Notes: generated from the sequence alone by a model not told the origin. 47,379 bases of DNA from a virus (IMGVR_UViG_3300030107_003655:1-47379); one strand, 5' to 3'. Counted from the stretch's first letter, positions 2,922 to 47,379 are shown. Made by a program: numbers and translations.

Positions 2922-3682
2922 AAACAAGAAAGATAAAGAATAAAGAACATATACTTTTTGACAATGAAAAAGAGTTCAAGCAATATCATACATCAACTAA
3001 ACTGGTAAGGAATTGGAGGGATGGAGTTGAAGGTGATTGGGTGCTGTGCGATGATGGTCAAGTGTGTATGGTATTGAAAAGAGGTGATTTAAGGAATGGG
3101 AATAGTAATGCCGTATACAATAACTACATAAGAACGATAATAGGTTCTTTCGTATGTAGAAAAAATACTAAGATGCAAGGAGAAATGCGAAGGAATATGT
3201 ATACCTTTGGAGCTCAAGATAAAACATCTTATGAGATAAACAAGGAAAGAAAGAAACCAACTAATAATGAATTCTTATTCGCAAAATATGTAGCAAAGGG
3301 CGACGATATGATTGACGCTTTTATGAAAGTGTACCCTGCTAAAAGCAGAGATTATGCAAAGCGTGAGTCTAAGTTGTTAATGAGTACTAAAAGGATAAAA
3401 AATTTGATTAGAGAAGAAATAGAAAAGGTTATGAATGAGGCTGAAATAACTCCTCTATACATACTAGAAAAAATGAAAGACATCATCGAGTCAGAGTCAT
3501 CTAGGGATAGTGATAAAGTTTCCTTATTGAAAGAACTTGTTGCTATTGCAGGGATGAGAGATACGGAAAAAAAATCGGAATCCGTTACGGTATTCCAAGG
3601 TTTTTCTCCTGAACAGCTTGATGCCATAAGTGGAAACAATGTAAAGCAATTAGCAACTGCTAAAAGGGAAATAGAAAGTTGA
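2918..3682 (+). CDS. terS: Probable terminase small subunit with N-terminal extension
   Basis: C-terminal half (FAKYVAKG..AFMKVY..EITPLYILEKMKDI..DKVSLLKELVAIAGM) fits the TerS HTH plus oligomerisation pattern; lies upstream of TerL. Confidence 0.6.
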   Translation: MKTRKIKNKEHILFDNEKEFKQYHTSTKLVRNWRDGVEGDWVLCDDGQVCMVLKRGDLRNGNSNAVYNNYIRTIIGSFVCRKNTKMQGEMRRNMYTFGAQDKTSYEINKERKKPTNNEFLFAKYVAKGDDMIDAFMKVYPAKSRDYAKRESKLLMSTKRIKNLIREEIEKVMNEAEITPLYILEKMKDIIESESSRDSDKVSLLKELVAIAGMRDTEKKSESVTVFQGFSPEQLDAISGNNVKQLATAKREIES

Positions 3683-3891
3683 ACCTATATGATATATGCA
3701 TAGAGGTCTTGGAGCACGCTAGTAATAATGATATGAGCATAGAAGAAGATAAGTCTCGAGAAGAAATAGCAACTGATATATACGACTTATTCTATGAATA
3801 TCAACTTTATAGTCCTTATGTAGACACCGGATACATAAATGACTTAGAGGAATACTGGGGTTATAGACAAGACATAGATGAAGACGAATAA
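3679..3891 (+). CDS. Acidic hypothetical protein, 70 aa
   Basis: TTG start overlapping the previous stop; fills the operon gap. Confidence 0.65.
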   Translation: MNLYDICIEVLEHASNNDMSIEEDKSREEIATDIYDLFYEYQLYSPYVDTGYINDLEEYWGYRQDIDEDE

Positions 3892-4252
3892 ATTAGCTGT
3901 TTACGGAACGCTAAGAAATGGCAAGCGAGATACTTGGAAAGTAGATGGCTATCTATTAGTATTCCCCGGACATAGAGATTTTCCAGCCGCAATGATTGAT
4001 AGTAGTGCAAAGGGCGCAATAGTAGAAGTAATTGACGTGGATGTTGGAGATATTATTGGTTATGATAGGTATGAAAATGTTAAAAGCGGCTTGTATGAAA
4101 GGAGAATTGTAAATGCCTATCAGCCAAATGGAGATGAAGTTGAGGCTTGGATGTATACTGTCGGCCCTGCATTACTGCAATATAATGGAGTATTTGAAGT
4201 ACTTCCAAATCAAGATTGGTTTTCAGAAGAATGCGTAAACCTAAGAAAGTAA
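3878..4252 (+). CDS. Gamma-glutamylcyclotransferase (GGCT/AIG2-like)
   Basis: AVYGTLRNG, DRYE (candidate catalytic Glu), YERRIV, AWMY. Confidence 0.85.
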   Translation: MKTNKLAVYGTLRNGKRDTWKVDGYLLVFPGHRDFPAAMIDSSAKGAIVEVIDVDVGDIIGYDRYENVKSGLYERRIVNAYQPNGDEVEAWMYTVGPALLQYNGVFEVLPNQDWFSEECVNLRK

Positions 4253-40315: not shown

Positions 40316-40504
40316 TTATTTTTCTTCATCACTCTCGATAAATTCATCCTCATAAATAAATCTCTCTAAGTATATTCCAGATTGCTCTTCTATTACTTCA
40401 AGTTCTTTTTCTACAATTTCTTCTATAGATTTTCCCTTATGTATATATTCAACTTTATCTATATATACTGCTAACTCTACTATTACTTTCTTGTAACTAC
40501 TCAT
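40316..40504 (-). CDS. Acidic hypothetical protein, 62 aa
   Basis: AAGGAG RBS; last gene of the amidoligase block. Confidence 0.7.
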   Translation of the reverse strand: MSSYKKVIVELAVYIDKVEYIHKGKSIEEIVEKELEVIEEQSGIYLERFIYEDEFIESDEEK

Positions 40505-40507
40505 TAT

Positions 40508-41635
40508 TCAACTCCTTTCTAATTTAAATTTATCTATTCTTTTTTTCATATATGATATTATATCTGGTTTAAAAGTATCCTCCATCTGCTTATCTATACT
40601 CATTGATAACCACTTTTTTGATTTCTCTCTACTAAATTCTGATAACTCAATACTCTTATTTATTATTGCATTAAGTATAGAAATCCAAGAGGTAATCTTA
40701 TACTTATTGATGGTAGCAGAGTGTAGTCTAAACTCAATAGTTCCGTGATAGTATCTAGAGTGAAGATTTAATGCACAATACCTAGCGTCATTGTATTTAT
40801 CGGTGGTAGGAGTTGAATGCATATAGTCATAATATATTTCTATTAACTCTTGCTCTTCGTATACCATTTCTAAGGAATCCACCTCTATTTGAAAGTCCTT
40901 ACACCAATTAGAAGATTGTCTAGAGCGAGGCATCATATCTTTTAATAGATTTTGGAAATTCTTATAAACAATTCCTACATACGCTACTTCTCTAGCACTC
41001 ATATCTAGTGAGTTAAAATGCACGTGGAAACCACAGCTACTATTCACATCTGCTCCGTATCTCTTCTTCCAGAGCATTAAGTTATCTATATTCTCCATTA
41101 ATAAGTCTCCATTAGCAGGAGTAGATACTAATTCTAATCCACAATACCCATCTGGTGGAGAGATAGAACCATCGTTAACACTATTCCAATACATAGGGCT
41201 ATCGAAACTATCTGCACTTGGTATTACACATTCAACCTCTAATCCTACCAATGTCTTAATATCGAATTTAAACGTTTCAGATTTTCTAGAATTCACAGGT
41301 ATAGATTTATTTTCTAAATTGAAAATTAAATTTCCTTCTCTTTCTACTGGCGTACAACCTTCGCAATATGGTTCGTCTAAATAGTATTCTATGTAATCGT
41401 TATCTACACATTCGCCACAAGAAGTGCAATTACTAAAGAAATCGTGATAGCAATCCTCACAATATGCAAAATCATCACTTCCCCAAAACACATAATCCAT
41501 ATCCATTAGATGATTGCAGTTAGTACAACTTCTATAATACTCATCAAGACAATATTCACATAGGTCTGGCTCCTTATGTACTAATTCTTCCTTCTCATAG
41601 CAAGAAGAACAGATGCATTTCTCTTGTTTAGACAT
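40508..41635 (-). CDS. Putative amidoligase (Amidoligase_2, COOH-NH2 ligase fold) with N-terminal Zn ribbons
   Basis: GLEVE, DGSI, LELVS, VNSSCGFHVH, RYCALNL, TIEFR; six CxxC at the N-terminus. Confidence 0.9.
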   Translation of the reverse strand: MSKQEKCICSSCYEKEELVHKEPDLCEYCLDEYYRSCTNCNHLMDMDYVFWGSDDFAYCEDCYHDFFSNCTSCGECVDNDYIEYYLDEPYCEGCTPVEREGNLIFNLENKSIPVNSRKSETFKFDIKTLVGLEVECVIPSADSFDSPMYWNSVNDGSISPPDGYCGLELVSTPANGDLLMENIDNLMLWKKRYGADVNSSCGFHVHFNSLDMSAREVAYVGIVYKNFQNLLKDMMPRSRQSSNWCKDFQIEVDSLEMVYEEQELIEIYYDYMHSTPTTDKYNDARYCALNLHSRYYHGTIEFRLHSATINKYKITSWISILNAIINKSIELSEFSREKSKKWLSMSIDKQMEDTFKPDIISYMKKRIDKFKLERS

Positions 41636-41636
41636 C

Positions 41637-41957
41637 CTATCCTCCCGTGTTTGTAGCTTGTATGAAGCCTACTACAAAAACATTAACCACCTTAAGCCAC
41701 TTTATCTTTTTTAGAGCGTTGTACAATGCGTACTCTATACATTCAGACTCTGTATCTACTTCCATATTACCAAGTTCTTCTATTTGATTCTTAAGGAATT
41801 CTAAATACTCCTCATATGAATTATTAGATAGAAATGGATTCTTCTTAGCTTTTTCATACAGCTTCTTGATAACGTATTTTTTAGACTTTAGTTTAATAGG
41901 ATTTGGAATACCTATTAATACTACCTTCTTATTAGAAGGGACAGCTTCCTTCTTCAT
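41637..41957 (-). CDS. Small helical protein within the amidoligase cluster
   Basis: 106 aa, coupled to the GATase and amidoligase genes; AAGGAGG RBS. Confidence 0.7.
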   Translation of the reverse strand: MKKEAVPSNKKVVLIGIPNPIKLKSKKYVIKKLYEKAKKNPFLSNNSYEEYLEFLKNQIEELGNMEVDTESECIEYALYNALKKIKWLKVVNVFVVGFIQATNTGG

Positions 41958-42933
41958 TATCTTTTACCTCCTTTTCATTACTTAAAAACTCACAATCATA
42001 ACAAACATTTCTATTATATCCATCTGTCCACACCTCATCAGTAGATGTCCACTCATAACAATAGGAACACATTTCTTTAGATTCATTTTCATTACCAGAA
42101 CCTAATAATCCTTTAGTAGCTGGACTAGGATTATAGAAACCTCCAATGTAATCCCTATTGTACCAAGCGTTGTTATGGTAGTTCCTATAGCTATACTGAC
42201 TAATAGTTGTAAATGGTGTAGTCTCGTGATTAGTCTTAGTATCAAATTTATCAGTATTGAATGTAAGTATGTAATCTTCTGCTACCGATTTTATTGGCAA
42301 TCGTAACCCAGTTCTATACATAGCATCTTCCATTATATCCTTAGTAGATGCCCATAGTAGAACTCTAGCCTTTTTCCAATATGCCATTACAATAGGTCTA
42401 CCAGACTCTCTAGCCATATGTAATTTTCTATTACTATCTTTTACCCAAGTAATAGCAAAGTCTCCATCTATATCTTCAAAAGCCTTGTTCATCTCTAACT
42501 TATTAAGAGATTGAAATAAGACTTGAGAATCTACCTCTGGTACGCTCTTACCTAGATTTCTTGCTACTTGGTTGTAATTATGTATAATACCATTATGTAC
42601 ACCAGTAACACTACCTATGTTAAATGGGTGAGCATTATTAACTTCTACAGCCCCTTGTGTAGCAAGCCTAACGTGTCCCATAACAATAGTAGTACGTCTG
42701 TTTACTTTGCTAAGAATATCTCTACTCCAAACATTTTGACCAACTAAAGTAGAAGAATCTGTTAATGTCTTAAAGGTGTATCTACCATTGGAGTCCATTA
42801 TAGAAAACCCCGTACTATCCTCACCCCTAACAGAAGAATTATCTGCTAGATTAGTTAACATTCTCTTAAGTATCTCTAATTGGTTATCTGATTGTCTGCC
42901 ATTTGACTTAGCAAAACCAAATATACCACACAT
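41932..42933 (-). CDS. Class II (Ntn) glutamine amidotransferase with C-terminal Zn finger
   Basis: MCGIFG, RGEDSTG, GHVRLAT, NAHPF, HNGII, VDSQ; CSYC..CYDC tail. Confidence 0.93.
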   Translation of the reverse strand: MCGIFGFAKSNGRQSDNQLEILKRMLTNLADNSSVRGEDSTGFSIMDSNGRYTFKTLTDSSTLVGQNVWSRDILSKVNRRTTIVMGHVRLATQGAVEVNNAHPFNIGSVTGVHNGIIHNYNQVARNLGKSVPEVDSQVLFQSLNKLEMNKAFEDIDGDFAITWVKDSNRKLHMARESGRPIVMAYWKKARVLLWASTKDIMEDAMYRTGLRLPIKSVAEDYILTFNTDKFDTKTNHETTPFTTISQYSYRNYHNNAWYNRDYIGGFYNPSPATKGLLGSGNENESKEMCSYCYEWTSTDEVWTDGYNRNVCYDCEFLSNEKEVKDNEEGSCPF

Positions 42934-42945
42934 TTATTTATCTCC

Positions 42946-44748
42946 TTATTTTTGTTTATCTATTCTACTTTCTATGTACTCAGTTCCCCAAGTACCTGCT
43001 ATATCCCTAATAACATCCATAGGGTTAGTCTTTTTATTAATTATTTTTCTATACAATTCTTTATTCTTAATGAGAGATTTGGACTTATTCATTATTCTAT
43101 TAAGAAATCTTACCCAATTAACTATCTCTTCTGAAGAAGTAGTACCTTCGTGATATCTAAATTCTATTGTTCCTAACATAAACCTTGCGTGTATGTTTGT
43201 TCCGATATATCTAGCATCATTATACTTGCTATCTGATATATTAGTATGTCCCATCTTATAGTACCCTTCTACTAACTTGGATAAGCTTTCTATTTTGTCA
43301 ATGGTACGAGGGTTTATATCTATTGGTTTACAATACGAACTACCTAATCTCTCCTTAGGTAGTGATTTGTATATAGATGATTGTATTTTAGACATTATCA
43401 TAAGTAATGACTTTATTTCTGTAAAATTAAAATCTACTGCGTTCATATGTATATGCACTCCACAACTACTATCTACCATATTACCCTCTTGGTAATGTGC
43501 TTCTTCTAATTGCGTACAAGATTCTATTATATCATTACCTATTATTGGTTTTCTAGTAACAAACTCTACTCCTCCACTACTAAGACTACCATCTTCTACT
43601 ACGTCAAAGTACTTTGGCACTAGGGCACAGTTATAATAATCTTCTGCTCCATCATAATTAGTTATTACCTCACTTTCTATACCTGTAAATCTATTAAGGG
43701 TAGGGTTAGATGAAAACTTATTAGGTAACCCTTTATGGGCAAATGGGTTGAATAGATAATTACTTAGTAATTGTGAGCCACAATCCGTACAATACCTACT
43801 ACCAAATATTGATGTATAATTATCATTATTAGGAGGTAGGAATTTTTCTATTAAATCTCTTCTTTCTTGATATCCCATACAATTTCTTAGTTTATTAATG
43901 TTTATTATTTCTACGCTTTTACATCTCTTACAATCTACGTAGAAAATATTTATACAATAATCACAAATCTTATTACAATTAATATTCTTAGCTATTTGAC
44001 GTACAAAATCGCTATCTATATGAGCAATATCTATAATTTGTGTTATTTTATGCTGAATATGGCATATATCACAACTATCTTCTATTTTATCATAGCAAAT
44101 ATTACAATAGTAATCATTATCAAATTTTCTAAAGCTTTCTATTCCTATCTTATTACAACTAGAACACAGATGGTAGTCTTTATATGATGCTCTACTATTA
44201 ATTAGCCTTGTTAACAATCCTCTATAATGTGATTTTAGGTAGAATCTATTATTACATCTAAGTCTAGAATCATTTTTATCTACTAATTCCACATCTGATT
44301 CCATTGTCTTCCATAGAAAATGCTCATTACTTGCTAATTCTTGATGAATAGCATCTATAACATATTCATTAGACTTTTCAAATTCTAAATTAAGTAGTTT
44401 TAGAACATACCTATAGTCATCACCTACTATTTTCTTCTCTATTGTAGTTAATGGGTGATAGTTTACGTTTTTCATATATATTAGGTCACTTGCTCTACAT
44501 ATTAACCTTTCTCCATCTGCTCTTTCTATTAAAACGCTTAGATTAGTAAGCTTAGAATACCCATTGTAACTCAATATATCTATTATCTTATAAATCCTAG
44601 AAGATATTGACGTTCTATTAGTATAGACTAATCTATTTTCTTGTTTATACAAATCAATATTAAGTATATCAATATCTATAAACTTATCACTTTCAACCTT
44701 AACTGCATTATAAATATTATGTAGTACAACTTCATTTGAACATAGCAT
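42946..44748 (-). CDS. Putative amidoligase with long N-terminal region and Zn ribbons
   Basis: GIESEV, EDGSL, GVEFVT, VDSSCGVHIH, RYIGTNI, TIEFR; six CxxC in the middle. Confidence 0.9.
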   Translation of the reverse strand: MLCSNEVVLHNIYNAVKVESDKFIDIDILNIDLYKQENRLVYTNRTSISSRIYKIIDILSYNGYSKLTNLSVLIERADGERLICRASDLIYMKNVNYHPLTTIEKKIVGDDYRYVLKLLNLEFEKSNEYVIDAIHQELASNEHFLWKTMESDVELVDKNDSRLRCNNRFYLKSHYRGLLTRLINSRASYKDYHLCSSCNKIGIESFRKFDNDYYCNICYDKIEDSCDICHIQHKITQIIDIAHIDSDFVRQIAKNINCNKICDYCINIFYVDCKRCKSVEIININKLRNCMGYQERRDLIEKFLPPNNDNYTSIFGSRYCTDCGSQLLSNYLFNPFAHKGLPNKFSSNPTLNRFTGIESEVITNYDGAEDYYNCALVPKYFDVVEDGSLSSGGVEFVTRKPIIGNDIIESCTQLEEAHYQEGNMVDSSCGVHIHMNAVDFNFTEIKSLLMIMSKIQSSIYKSLPKERLGSSYCKPIDINPRTIDKIESLSKLVEGYYKMGHTNISDSKYNDARYIGTNIHARFMLGTIEFRYHEGTTSSEEIVNWVRFLNRIMNKSKSLIKNKELYRKIINKKTNPMDVIRDIAGTWGTEYIESRIDKQK

Positions 44749-44878
44749 CTCTTATCTCCTTTAGCATTGTTACTATATAGTCTTTATATAGAAATACAAC
44801 CCCACTAGAAAAAATCGTTAATATACTAATGTGATTTTCTCCACAAGAGCCAAGTAGATGCTTAAATATCTCTTGCAT
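44732..44878 (-). CDS. Small membrane protein, 48 aa (not in ORF track)
   Basis: MQEIFKHLLGSCGENHISILTIFSSGVVFLYKDYIVTMLKEIRDAMFK; AGGAG RBS. Confidence 0.7.
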   Translation of the reverse strand: MQEIFKHLLGSCGENHISILTIFSSGVVFLYKDYIVTMLKEIRDAMFK

Positions 44879-45317: not shown

Positions 45318-45740
45318 TTAGATAGGCCAATAGTACTCCATATCTATTGGCTCTTGCCACTTGTACCTAGAGTAGTAATACTCTAAGTCTTTACGTAGTA
45401 GGTTGCTTCTATGAGAAGCGTGTACTCTATTATCGCCTAACCAAGAAGGCATCTCTATAGAATCTGGTAGTGCTACTAAGTCCATAGTATTATTATATCC
45501 TCGTAGTATCCATTCTTCTATCATTTTATTTTTATAGAGCAACAACGCTTCTACATAGCCATCCCACATTAGAACGGCAGGATGATTTAACCAACCTTTG
45601 TAGCTTTTGCCTTGTAAAGTTGGATTATCTACTAATACATTGTAGATTTGTAATGCTTCTACTCTTTGCTTACCTAATCTTCGATAGTCTAATACTTGTG
45701 CAGATAGAGTAAAATCTTCATATGGTAGAAATGTCTGCAT
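45318..45740 (-). CDS. Pyrimidine dimer DNA glycosylase/endonuclease V-like (MSMEG_6728 family)
   Basis: MQTFLPY..LD.RRLGKQRVEA.QI..HPAV.MW..HASHRSNLLRKD..Y.WP. Confidence 0.85.
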   Translation of the reverse strand: MQTFLPYEDFTLSAQVLDYRRLGKQRVEALQIYNVLVDNPTLQGKSYKGWLNHPAVLMWDGYVEALLLYKNKMIEEWILRGYNNTMDLVALPDSIEMPSWLGDNRVHASHRSNLLRKDLEYYYSRYKWQEPIDMEYYWPI

Positions 45741-46879: not shown

Positions 46880-47143
46880 CTACTTATTTACATTAATAGA
46901 ACATTTACTGAATGTTTCATTGTTTCTACTAAACATCTCTACTATCCTATCTCTGTTTTCCTCTACCCAACTATTAAGCTGTGTTTCTATTCTAGTAAAC
47001 CCGTCCATTTCTCGCAATAGATTTAACTTATTTCGAGTTTTATCACTAGCTAGTTTTGACTCAATAGCTTTATTATAGCCATCTTTATCGATAATACCTG
47101 CATCTAACATCTTTCTTAAATGTGCATTACTTATCTTGCTCAT
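46880..47143 (-). CDS. Hypothetical early protein, 87 aa
   Basis: AAGGAG RBS; mostly synonymous differences from the copy at 1-164 support coding. Confidence 0.85.
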   Translation of the reverse strand: MSKISNAHLRKMLDAGIIDKDGYNKAIESKLASDKTRNKLNLLREMDGFTRIETQLNSWVEENRDRIVEMFSRNNETFSKCSINVNK

Positions 47144-47379
47144 TACTTTTCTCCTTTTATTAGTTTGTCTAATGATATATTCTACTAAAGATTATCTATT
47201 GAATACCTCACTAGATTTGTATTTATTTTGTTTCATAGGCAAACTTAAGCATAATAAAAGAAATTTCCTATAAAATTATTCAATAGTATAAAAGTTTCAT
47301 TGGAGTGTTTTTCTAAAAGTCAATAGTTATTTTTAGGAATGTGACGCACATCACACTTGGGAAAGTGTCTATTGACTCG
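46980..47379 (+). repeat. Right copy of imperfect terminal direct repeat
   Basis: Matches 1-402. Confidence 0.95.

Follow-up and report, generated by a model that had tools for sequence, protein, structure and literature searches.

The closest described counterpart of the genes considered here is a gene set of phiEco32/LUZ24-type phages, in which a ligase of the Amidoligase_2 family (PF12224), a class II glutamine amidotransferase (GATase; PF13522) and an AIG2/GGCT protein are encoded in one podovirus-like genome, as the gene table of phage UFV-P2 indicates (PMC3890496). A function was predicted for the phiEco32 set in 2009; that prediction is repeated in passages of two later papers (PMC10580990; PMC11318856), the proposals are also cited in a passage of a third (PMC11706807), and a role in nitrogen metabolism is suggested for a related set in a passage on Phage-ZRK32 (PMC10945688). 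We describe here a variant of this gene set in the genome of an uncultured phage, IMGVR_UViG_3300030107_003655:1-47379, whose whole 47,379-nt stretch is referred to below as the window. The genome encodes two ligases (lig600 and lig375), a GATase and a 106-amino-acid (aa) protein (p106) in one cassette, and a gamma-glutamyl cyclotransferase elsewhere. The four enzymes have intact catalytic residues, the linkage of the cassette is conserved, the ligase fold is that of glutamine synthetase (GS) and glutamate-cysteine ligase (GCS), and p106 belongs to a ligase-linked family. The analysis narrows the candidate chemistry to a reversible gamma-glutamyl amide.

As in the phiEco32/LUZ24 cluster, so far as its published gene tables go, the three enzyme types share one genome, whose replication arm also bears ligase and GATase. 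The present set differs in that no ATP-grasp was found, no PF14395 was seen and the PF12224 ligases are two sister proteins, in the Cys arrays on all three cassette enzymes, in the small partner gene inside the cassette, and in the position of the cyclotransferase, which precedes the large terminase gene (terL) on the other arm. Pairs of PF12224 with GGCT or GATase are also found in Bacillus phage 031MP004, Arthrobacter phage Shrooms and Mycobacterium phage Tesla, with the same ligase family and the same kinds of cleaving partner. Compared with prophage ligase pairs, this genome combines the two cleaving enzymes with the small partner; GATase and partner occur together in none of 80 independent bacterial ligase loci, where partners were counted within the fetched flanks.

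The Pup-PafA-Dop system follows a writer-eraser logic. The fold of its two enzymes is shared by the phage ligase (VIA Z scores of 9.1 to PafA and 9.6 to Dop for a lig375 model), and in both cases the ligase adjoins a small protein; in contrast to Pup, p106 is predicted to be folded and is devoid of a disordered GG-Q/E tag end. A further parallel is ergothioneine synthesis, in which the gamma-glutamyl ligase EgtA acts together with EgtC, an amidotransferase that removes glutamate (PMC5790434). The phage set likewise pairs a putative gamma-glutamyl ligase with an amidotransferase-type glutamate remover. EgtA and EgtC, however, belong to a metabolic pathway with EgtB, EgtD and EgtE, none of which is seen here, and on the EgtC profile, for which the cut-off is 219 bits, the phage GATase reaches 31; the likeness is one of analogy and not of membership. 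Literature searches that did not extend to subscription papers or to the supplement of the 2009 work brought up no biochemical work on any phage Amidoligase_2 enzyme and nothing on such a partner, and term look-ups in PMC5512222, PMC7824862 and PMC2938197 gave nothing on such a system.

Layout and conservation of the cassette

All genes of the cassette lie on the minus strand, in the order lig600 (600 aa; 42946..44748), GATase (333 aa; 41932..42933), p106 (106 aa; 41637..41957) and lig375 (375 aa; 40508..41635), followed by a gene for a 62-aa acidic protein. The gaps between these five open reading frames (ORFs) are 12, -26, 1 and 3 nt, and a GGAG-type ribosome site is present at each of these four junctions. 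A preliminary description of the window had reported such a coupled five-ORF block, and its positions and sizes proved correct. The label "early" for the cassette derives from gene position alone.

Among 39 close viral loci, two of which come from one contig, the order lig600-GATase-p106-lig375 is kept in 31, bearing out the linkage that the same description had made a test of its idea; four others are cut by contig ends and four hold GATase-p106-lig375 only. Taken gene by gene, p106 is present in 37, GATase in 35 and the 62-aa gene in 16. A second sample, of 80 metagenome loci selected by p106 (61 distinct frames), has a GATase upstream in 78/78 loci with DNA there, a ligase downstream in 74/75 and a second ligase upstream in 72/72. 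The third consists of nine long contigs selected by terL, eight with a ligase: two encode both ligases, three GATase-p106-lig375, and three a GATase with one long ligase and no p106. In all, seven relatives (L033, L034, L036, L037 and L365-L367) have GATase-p106-lig375 without lig600. A heterodimer or two-step ligation, as first suggested for the two ligases, finds no support as a general requirement, and an obligatory heterodimer is unlikely, because single-ligase relatives exist, namely these seven and the three with a GATase and one ligase. A single-protein locus search with lig375 returned no relatives.

The two ligases

Both ligases match PF12224 well above its curated cut-off of 22 bits (E 6e-26 and 92.3 bits for lig600, E 1e-24 and 87.9 bits for lig375). 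In lig600, an N-terminal domain (residues 1-190) is followed by six CxxC motifs (195-323) and a ligase domain (about 345-600); the N-terminal domain gave no feature match, and its KOW/SH3-like structure matches all fell below the bar for naming. In lig375 the Cys array is N-terminal, with seven CxxC motifs (aa 9-94), and two more lie at the C-terminus of the GATase. The best solved structures for the Cys region are LIM double zinc fingers, a weak match (E 0.0013). The preliminary description had noted Zn-finger extensions on all three enzymes; its term "Zn ribbon" is not established.

The motifs on which that description had relied are all located, at GxExE 356/131, DGS 386/155, SSCGxHxHxN 427/199, KYNDARY 508/280 and GTIEFR 526/298 (lig600/lig375), and hidden Markov model (HMM) searches agree with its family assignments for ligases and GATase. 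Its requirement for catalytic residues is borne out by 15 residues conserved, both paralogues included, across all five ligase groups compared (36 lig375, 38 lig600, 57 partner-type, 22 GATase-type and 9 cyclotransferase-type sequences), which argues that neither ligase is a dead subunit; both look active. Residues E358, E360, D386, E395, H432, H434, R467, R513, E529 and R531 are invariant in 38 lig600 orthologues, and the ExE, E/D, E, HxH, R and ExR residues in both orthologue sets; we take these to be the metal- and ATP-binding residues.

The two proteins share 27% identity over 369 columns (E 2e-37) and form sister clades in a tree of 139 ligase domains (support 0.986), in keeping with the divergent paralogy proposed earlier. 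The tree indicates an old duplication within this phage lineage, with lig600 as the lineage-specific duplicate. KYNDARY, identical at 17 of 21 nt between the two genes of the window, is exact in 26/36 lig375 and 14/38 lig600 orthologues, and KYN..RY is a mark of the lig600/lig375 clade; gene conversion or a recent copy was considered as its source and rejected, the orthologue counts making it a lineage motif. Near the conserved motifs, the paralogues differ at fixed positions (N198/D426, S306/E534, K313, H297 and Y224).

An AlphaFold model of lig375 has a predicted local distance difference test (pLDDT) score of 90.8. Its closest VIA match is 1tt4, a YbdK-like carboxylate-amine ligase (Z 12.2, root-mean-square deviation 4.7, 234 residues aligned), followed by E. 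coli GS (11.4), plant GCS (11.3) and the Dop and PafA values given above; 18 chains of the GS/GCS/PafA kind fill the range 12.2-9.1, and the next, unrelated, match stands at 5.7. Foldseek retrieved the same families, with YbdK-like proteins, GS, GCS and GmaS on top. By this model lig375 has the GS/GCS (COOH-NH2 ligase) fold, which lig600, at 27% identity, would share.

The lack of an ATP-grasp partner noted at the outset was reproduced: RimK (PF08443) gave no match in the complete genome, in a search whose control was positive in 13 of 14 cases, and Pfam found no ATP-grasp family among the 55 window ORFs, a scan that a very divergent member could escape. PF14395 gave no Pfam match among the window ORFs; the search of five relatives for it lacked a positive control. 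PADLOC and NCBIfam name neither the ligases nor the small partner. Six genome loci (L085-L090), five of them labelled Omnitrophota, carry a Cys-array ligase with a GATase and provide the top cellular matches to lig375, at 25-28% identity, which is insufficient for a host call.

The amidotransferase and the cyclotransferase

The GATase matches GATase_6 (E 5e-18). Residues C2, R36-G37, H87, R89, T92, H102-P103, H113-N114-G115 and D135 are conserved in 97-100% of 39 sequences, and the protein aligns to PurF and GlmS, as a class II (N-terminal nucleophile, Ntn) enzyme. A Cys4 zinc site lies in its C-terminal part, where there are two CxxC motifs. It is likely a gamma-glutamyl amide hydrolase.

The cyclotransferase (3878..4252, plus strand), of GGACT/AIG2 type, lies directly before the large terminase gene and outside the region covered by the preliminary description, which missed both this gene and the status of p106 as a conserved ligase-partner family. 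It matches PF06094 (E 8e-9; 36.6 bits against a cut-off of 22.8), is present in 31 of 38 relatives, including 12 of the 12 near-complete ones, and directly precedes terL in 30/30 loci and in 71/71 terL-selected loci. Its residues Y9-G10-T11-L12 and E66 are conserved, with YGTL in 71/71 and YDxYE in 69/71 loci. The site reported for mouse GGACT is Tyr7-Gly8-Thr9-Leu10 with Glu82 (PMC2954230), and GGACT substrates are described, in a passage of PMC7022552, as gamma-glutamyl alkylamines. By motif, E66 would be the equivalent of Glu82; a PDB sequence search with the phage protein gave no GGACT match. What appears to tie the cyclotransferase to the cassette is its chemistry together with ligase-cyclotransferase pairs elsewhere, and not independent gain or loss.

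Such pairs are found in the bacterial sample. Its 80 loci comprise 48 with the small partner only, 18 with a GATase, five with a cyclotransferase only, three with partner and cyclotransferase (in one of these the partner call is strong and the cyclotransferase call weak, in the other two the partner call is weak) and six with none of these, five of the latter at contig ends. The 18 GATase loci all encode Cys-array ligases, and none has the small partner. Since a cyclotransferase cannot supply ammonia and yet takes the place of the GATase, this distribution favours a gamma-glutamyl writer accompanied by erasers and a regulator over a supply of ammonia for amidating the cell wall.

Two further arrangements were seen. 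At L048:5815-10246 two Amidoligase_2 genes (311 and 472 aa) lie in tandem, and behind each of them comes one of two related genes of 329-361 aa that have no Pfam match, and DUF932 genes adjoin amidoligase units at L049:9387-10358, L072:4391-6139 and L078:8909-9811.

The small partner protein

The p106 protein is a small alpha/beta protein with a lineage-specific hydrophobic tail, and aligns with a family of about 78 aa over 77 columns (HHalign probability 86%, E 5e-6; among 90 control families the highest probability was 3%); conversely, an HMM of that family ranks the p106 orthologues right after its own members. The ~78-aa protein directly follows the ligase in 26 of 40 distant viral loci, its start at most 52 nt from the ligase stop or overlapping the ligase, and a relative directly follows a lone amidoligase in 49 of the 80 bacterial loci, in most cases without a GATase or cyclotransferase close by. 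It also adjoins an amidoligase in five Porphyromonas prophages (annotated phages), and Bacillus phage 031MP004 has a weak match beside its amidoligase (E 2e-5). The family has no name in Pfam, PHROG, NCBIfam or PADLOC. In the cassette lineage, p106 goes with lig375 and is not needed by every member: it occurs with lig375 in the absence of lig600 in seven loci and was never seen with lig600 alone.

The p106 model (pLDDT 80) has four helices. Foldseek found no PDB match, the best VIA Z was 3.8 and atlas matches stayed below 0.9, which is not proof of a new fold; the best BFVD matches are two unnamed viral proteins of 79-86 aa (TM 0.58-0.59, E 0.07-0.08). A complex of the lig375 ligase domain with p106 (residues 6-96), predicted from 81-row alignments, scored 0.64, 0.00 and 0.00 in separate runs and was not used as evidence. 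The idea of a ubiquitin- or Pup-like tag was rejected, p106 being folded in the model and lacking a Glu or Gln conserved at the C-terminus. The Gly-Gly with which it ends overlaps the ribosome site of the next gene, most orthologues end in IGV or GIA, and C-termini vary across the ~78-aa family. No fusion of the small partner to a longer protein was present in 7,994 scored candidates, which is weak evidence.

The 36 partner-type loci have no common enzyme neighbour and many mobile or defence genes (no control); phage, integrase, transposase, methylase and restriction genes are the neighbours of ligase-partner pairs. Five extra partner copies were found in bacterial genomes, two after a whole ligase, one after a truncated ligase and two alone (one of these a weak match). 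L196:2092-2833 (minus strand) has an intact partner gene beside a ligase cut down to its C-terminal half, and L198:2044-2355 (minus strand) an orphan partner gene among ordinary host genes. A single-protein locus search with a partner returned its own record and one spurious, ligase-free match.

Possible functions

We consider it plausible, if somewhat short of probable, that the set carries out reversible gamma-glutamyl tagging of protein amines, with two ligases for different acceptors and p106 regulating lig375. By family chemistry, each ligase would use ATP and glutamate, in a Mg-dependent manner, to form gamma-glutamyl phosphate, which an amine would then attack, so that the gamma-carboxyl of glutamate is joined to that amine; GATase and cyclotransferase would remove it. 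The eraser has a GGACT-type site and for this reason the acceptor may be an alkylamine, most likely a protein lysine and less likely a polyamine. Lig600 and lig375 would work in parallel on different acceptors, chosen by their zinc fingers and by the extra domain of lig600. The GATase would be EgtC-like, cleaving gamma-glutamyl amides and not feeding ammonia, the cyclotransferase, sited with the terminase, may clear the tag late, and p106 may bind lig375 and restrain or target it. The main argument for reversible tagging is the distribution of the cleaving enzymes: in some lineages the cyclotransferase stands in for the GATase, the majority of the bacterial loci sampled lack the two, and this phage has both. 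Should the target be a protein, the phage would bring along a post-translational modification that is reversible, together with the enzymes that erase it.

Several observations weigh against this proposal. The GATase keeps a free-glutamine pocket and scores better against GlmS (E 4e-17) than against EgtC (E 2e-7), which fits ammonia supply too. The link from p106 to the ~78-aa family is one of 12% identity at 86% probability, and the partner is dispensable in L362-L364, which have a GATase and one ligase without p106. A residue count in favour of the link, in which lig375 matches 20 of 51 non-universal residues conserved in partner-type ligases (12, 8 and 12 for the other groups), is weak because the groups are uneven and related; HSGT..K, tried as a partner marker, was rejected, as it is kept by the partner-less L362-L364 and by four Omnitrophota ligases. 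Counted across the genome ends, some 6.5 kb separate the cassette from the cyclotransferase gene, which is on the opposite strand, and no complete ligase-free relative was found (eight of nine terL-selected contigs have a ligase, the ninth being 82% complete), so that shared ancestry alone could explain the co-occurrence.

The alternative closest to the 2009 phiEco32 proposal, known here second-hand from passages of PMC10580990 and PMC11318856, is glutamine-dependent amidation, which also comes near the view taken in the preliminary description: with ammonia released by the GATase, the ligases would turn a carboxylate of a host envelope precursor or receptor into an amide, blocking superinfection. 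In its favour are the translational coupling of GATase and ligases, the conservation of the glutamine-binding residues, the presence of a GATase with every one of the 18 Cys-array ligases in the bacterial sample of 80 loci, and the moderately hydrophobic stretches of p106 and p48, a short ORF described below (17-residue means of about 1.5 and 1.4). However, 48 of the 80 bacterial loci have no GATase in the fetched flanks and five have a cyclotransferase instead, the conserved cyclotransferase of the lineage is left unexplained, and the citing papers, in the passages concerned, rest on prediction and not on experiment; we regard amidation as unlikely. Alternatively, the product could be a small molecule, for instance a gamma-glutamyl amine or amino acid, that is made and recycled to hold nitrogen or to deplete a host amine or signal, no macromolecule being tagged. 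The small-molecule ligases (YbdK-like, GS, GCS, GmaS) that head the fold matches and the nitrogen role suggested for the Phage-ZRK32 set (PMC10945688, same passage) point this way; multi-zinc-finger extensions on three enzymes and a dedicated partner would better fit a macromolecular target, and a cycle in which one small amide is formed and cleaved again would be futile unless timed, which leaves this possibility rather unlikely. Quite improbable, in our view, is modification of phage DNA or nucleotides with a glutamyl or amide group against restriction, with the zinc fingers binding nucleic acid. The solved relatives are amino-acid, small-amine or Pup ligases, and Pfam found no hydroxymethylase, base kinase, TET or aGPT-type family among the 55 window ORFs, even if the cassette heads the recombination-replication arm, a DenV-like glycosylase gene stands beside it in 18 of 39 loci, the cyclotransferase abuts terL, DNA methylases adjoin five of 36 partner-type loci (no control), and amidoligase and amidotransferase genes are listed, in part of PMC8989533, as co-occurring with thymidine-hypermodification genes.

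Reversible tagging also has a more speculative extension, which we place on the unlikely side: Amidoligase_2 would be an effector whose gamma-glutamylating activity is toxic, and the ~78-aa protein, represented here by p106, its cognate inhibitor, the two making up a hitherto undescribed toxin-antitoxin-like or conflict module. The module would have spread via prophages and islands of Bacteroidota, Desulfovibrio, Spirochaetia, Verrucomicrobia and others, while other lineages would use GATase and cyclotransferase as their enzymatic antidotes; the present phage lineage would have merged both forms, duplicated the writer and come to glutamylate host proteins reversibly during infection. Hints of this are the near-exclusive partner exchange and the partners left by a truncated ligase or alone (3/5 extra copies). 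Distant ligase-partner pairs do form coupled two-gene units in mobile DNA, which the window's four-gene cassette does not. This minimal form, a ligase with its ~78-aa partner, exists in culturable bacteria and lends itself to experiment much more readily than the whole phage cassette.

Genome setting and neighbouring genes

The genome is complete (CheckV 100%). Its two ends share a repeat of about 400 nt at 96% identity (1-402 against 46980-47379, with a 2-nt offset), which is either a true terminal repeat or the product of two closely related strains overlapping. The plus arm encodes a P22-like portal and an SU10-like capsid protein, while exonuclease, resolvase and DnaB genes are found on the minus arm. 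Identity of terL to any cultured phage is at most 29%, and many relatives are contigs named Tara or other metagenomes. A promoter scan was uninformative (42 sites against 47 in shuffles).

The 62-aa protein (40316..40504, minus strand) has no family match. The preliminary description had included it in the block, where the ORF does lie; found in 16 of 39 relatives, it is not core, and its gene is real but accessory and probably outside the system. At the other end, the 48-aa p48 ORF (44732..44878, minus strand) overlaps the lig600 start. It has an HLLGxCGExH motif, a weakly hydrophobic stretch and no Pfam family, and is conserved in 30 of 39 related loci, present in L365-L367 and missing from L362-L364; it is possibly a metal-binding membrane peptide, and its tie to the ligase system is uncertain. 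Just upstream of the cassette, at 45318-45740 (minus strand), lies the gene for the DenV-like pyrimidine dimer glycosylase (PF03013, E 1e-22). On the plus strand, a metallophosphoesterase ORF (2160-2921) precedes terS, and a 70-aa acidic ORF (3679-3891), conserved in closer relatives, is located between terS and the cyclotransferase gene.

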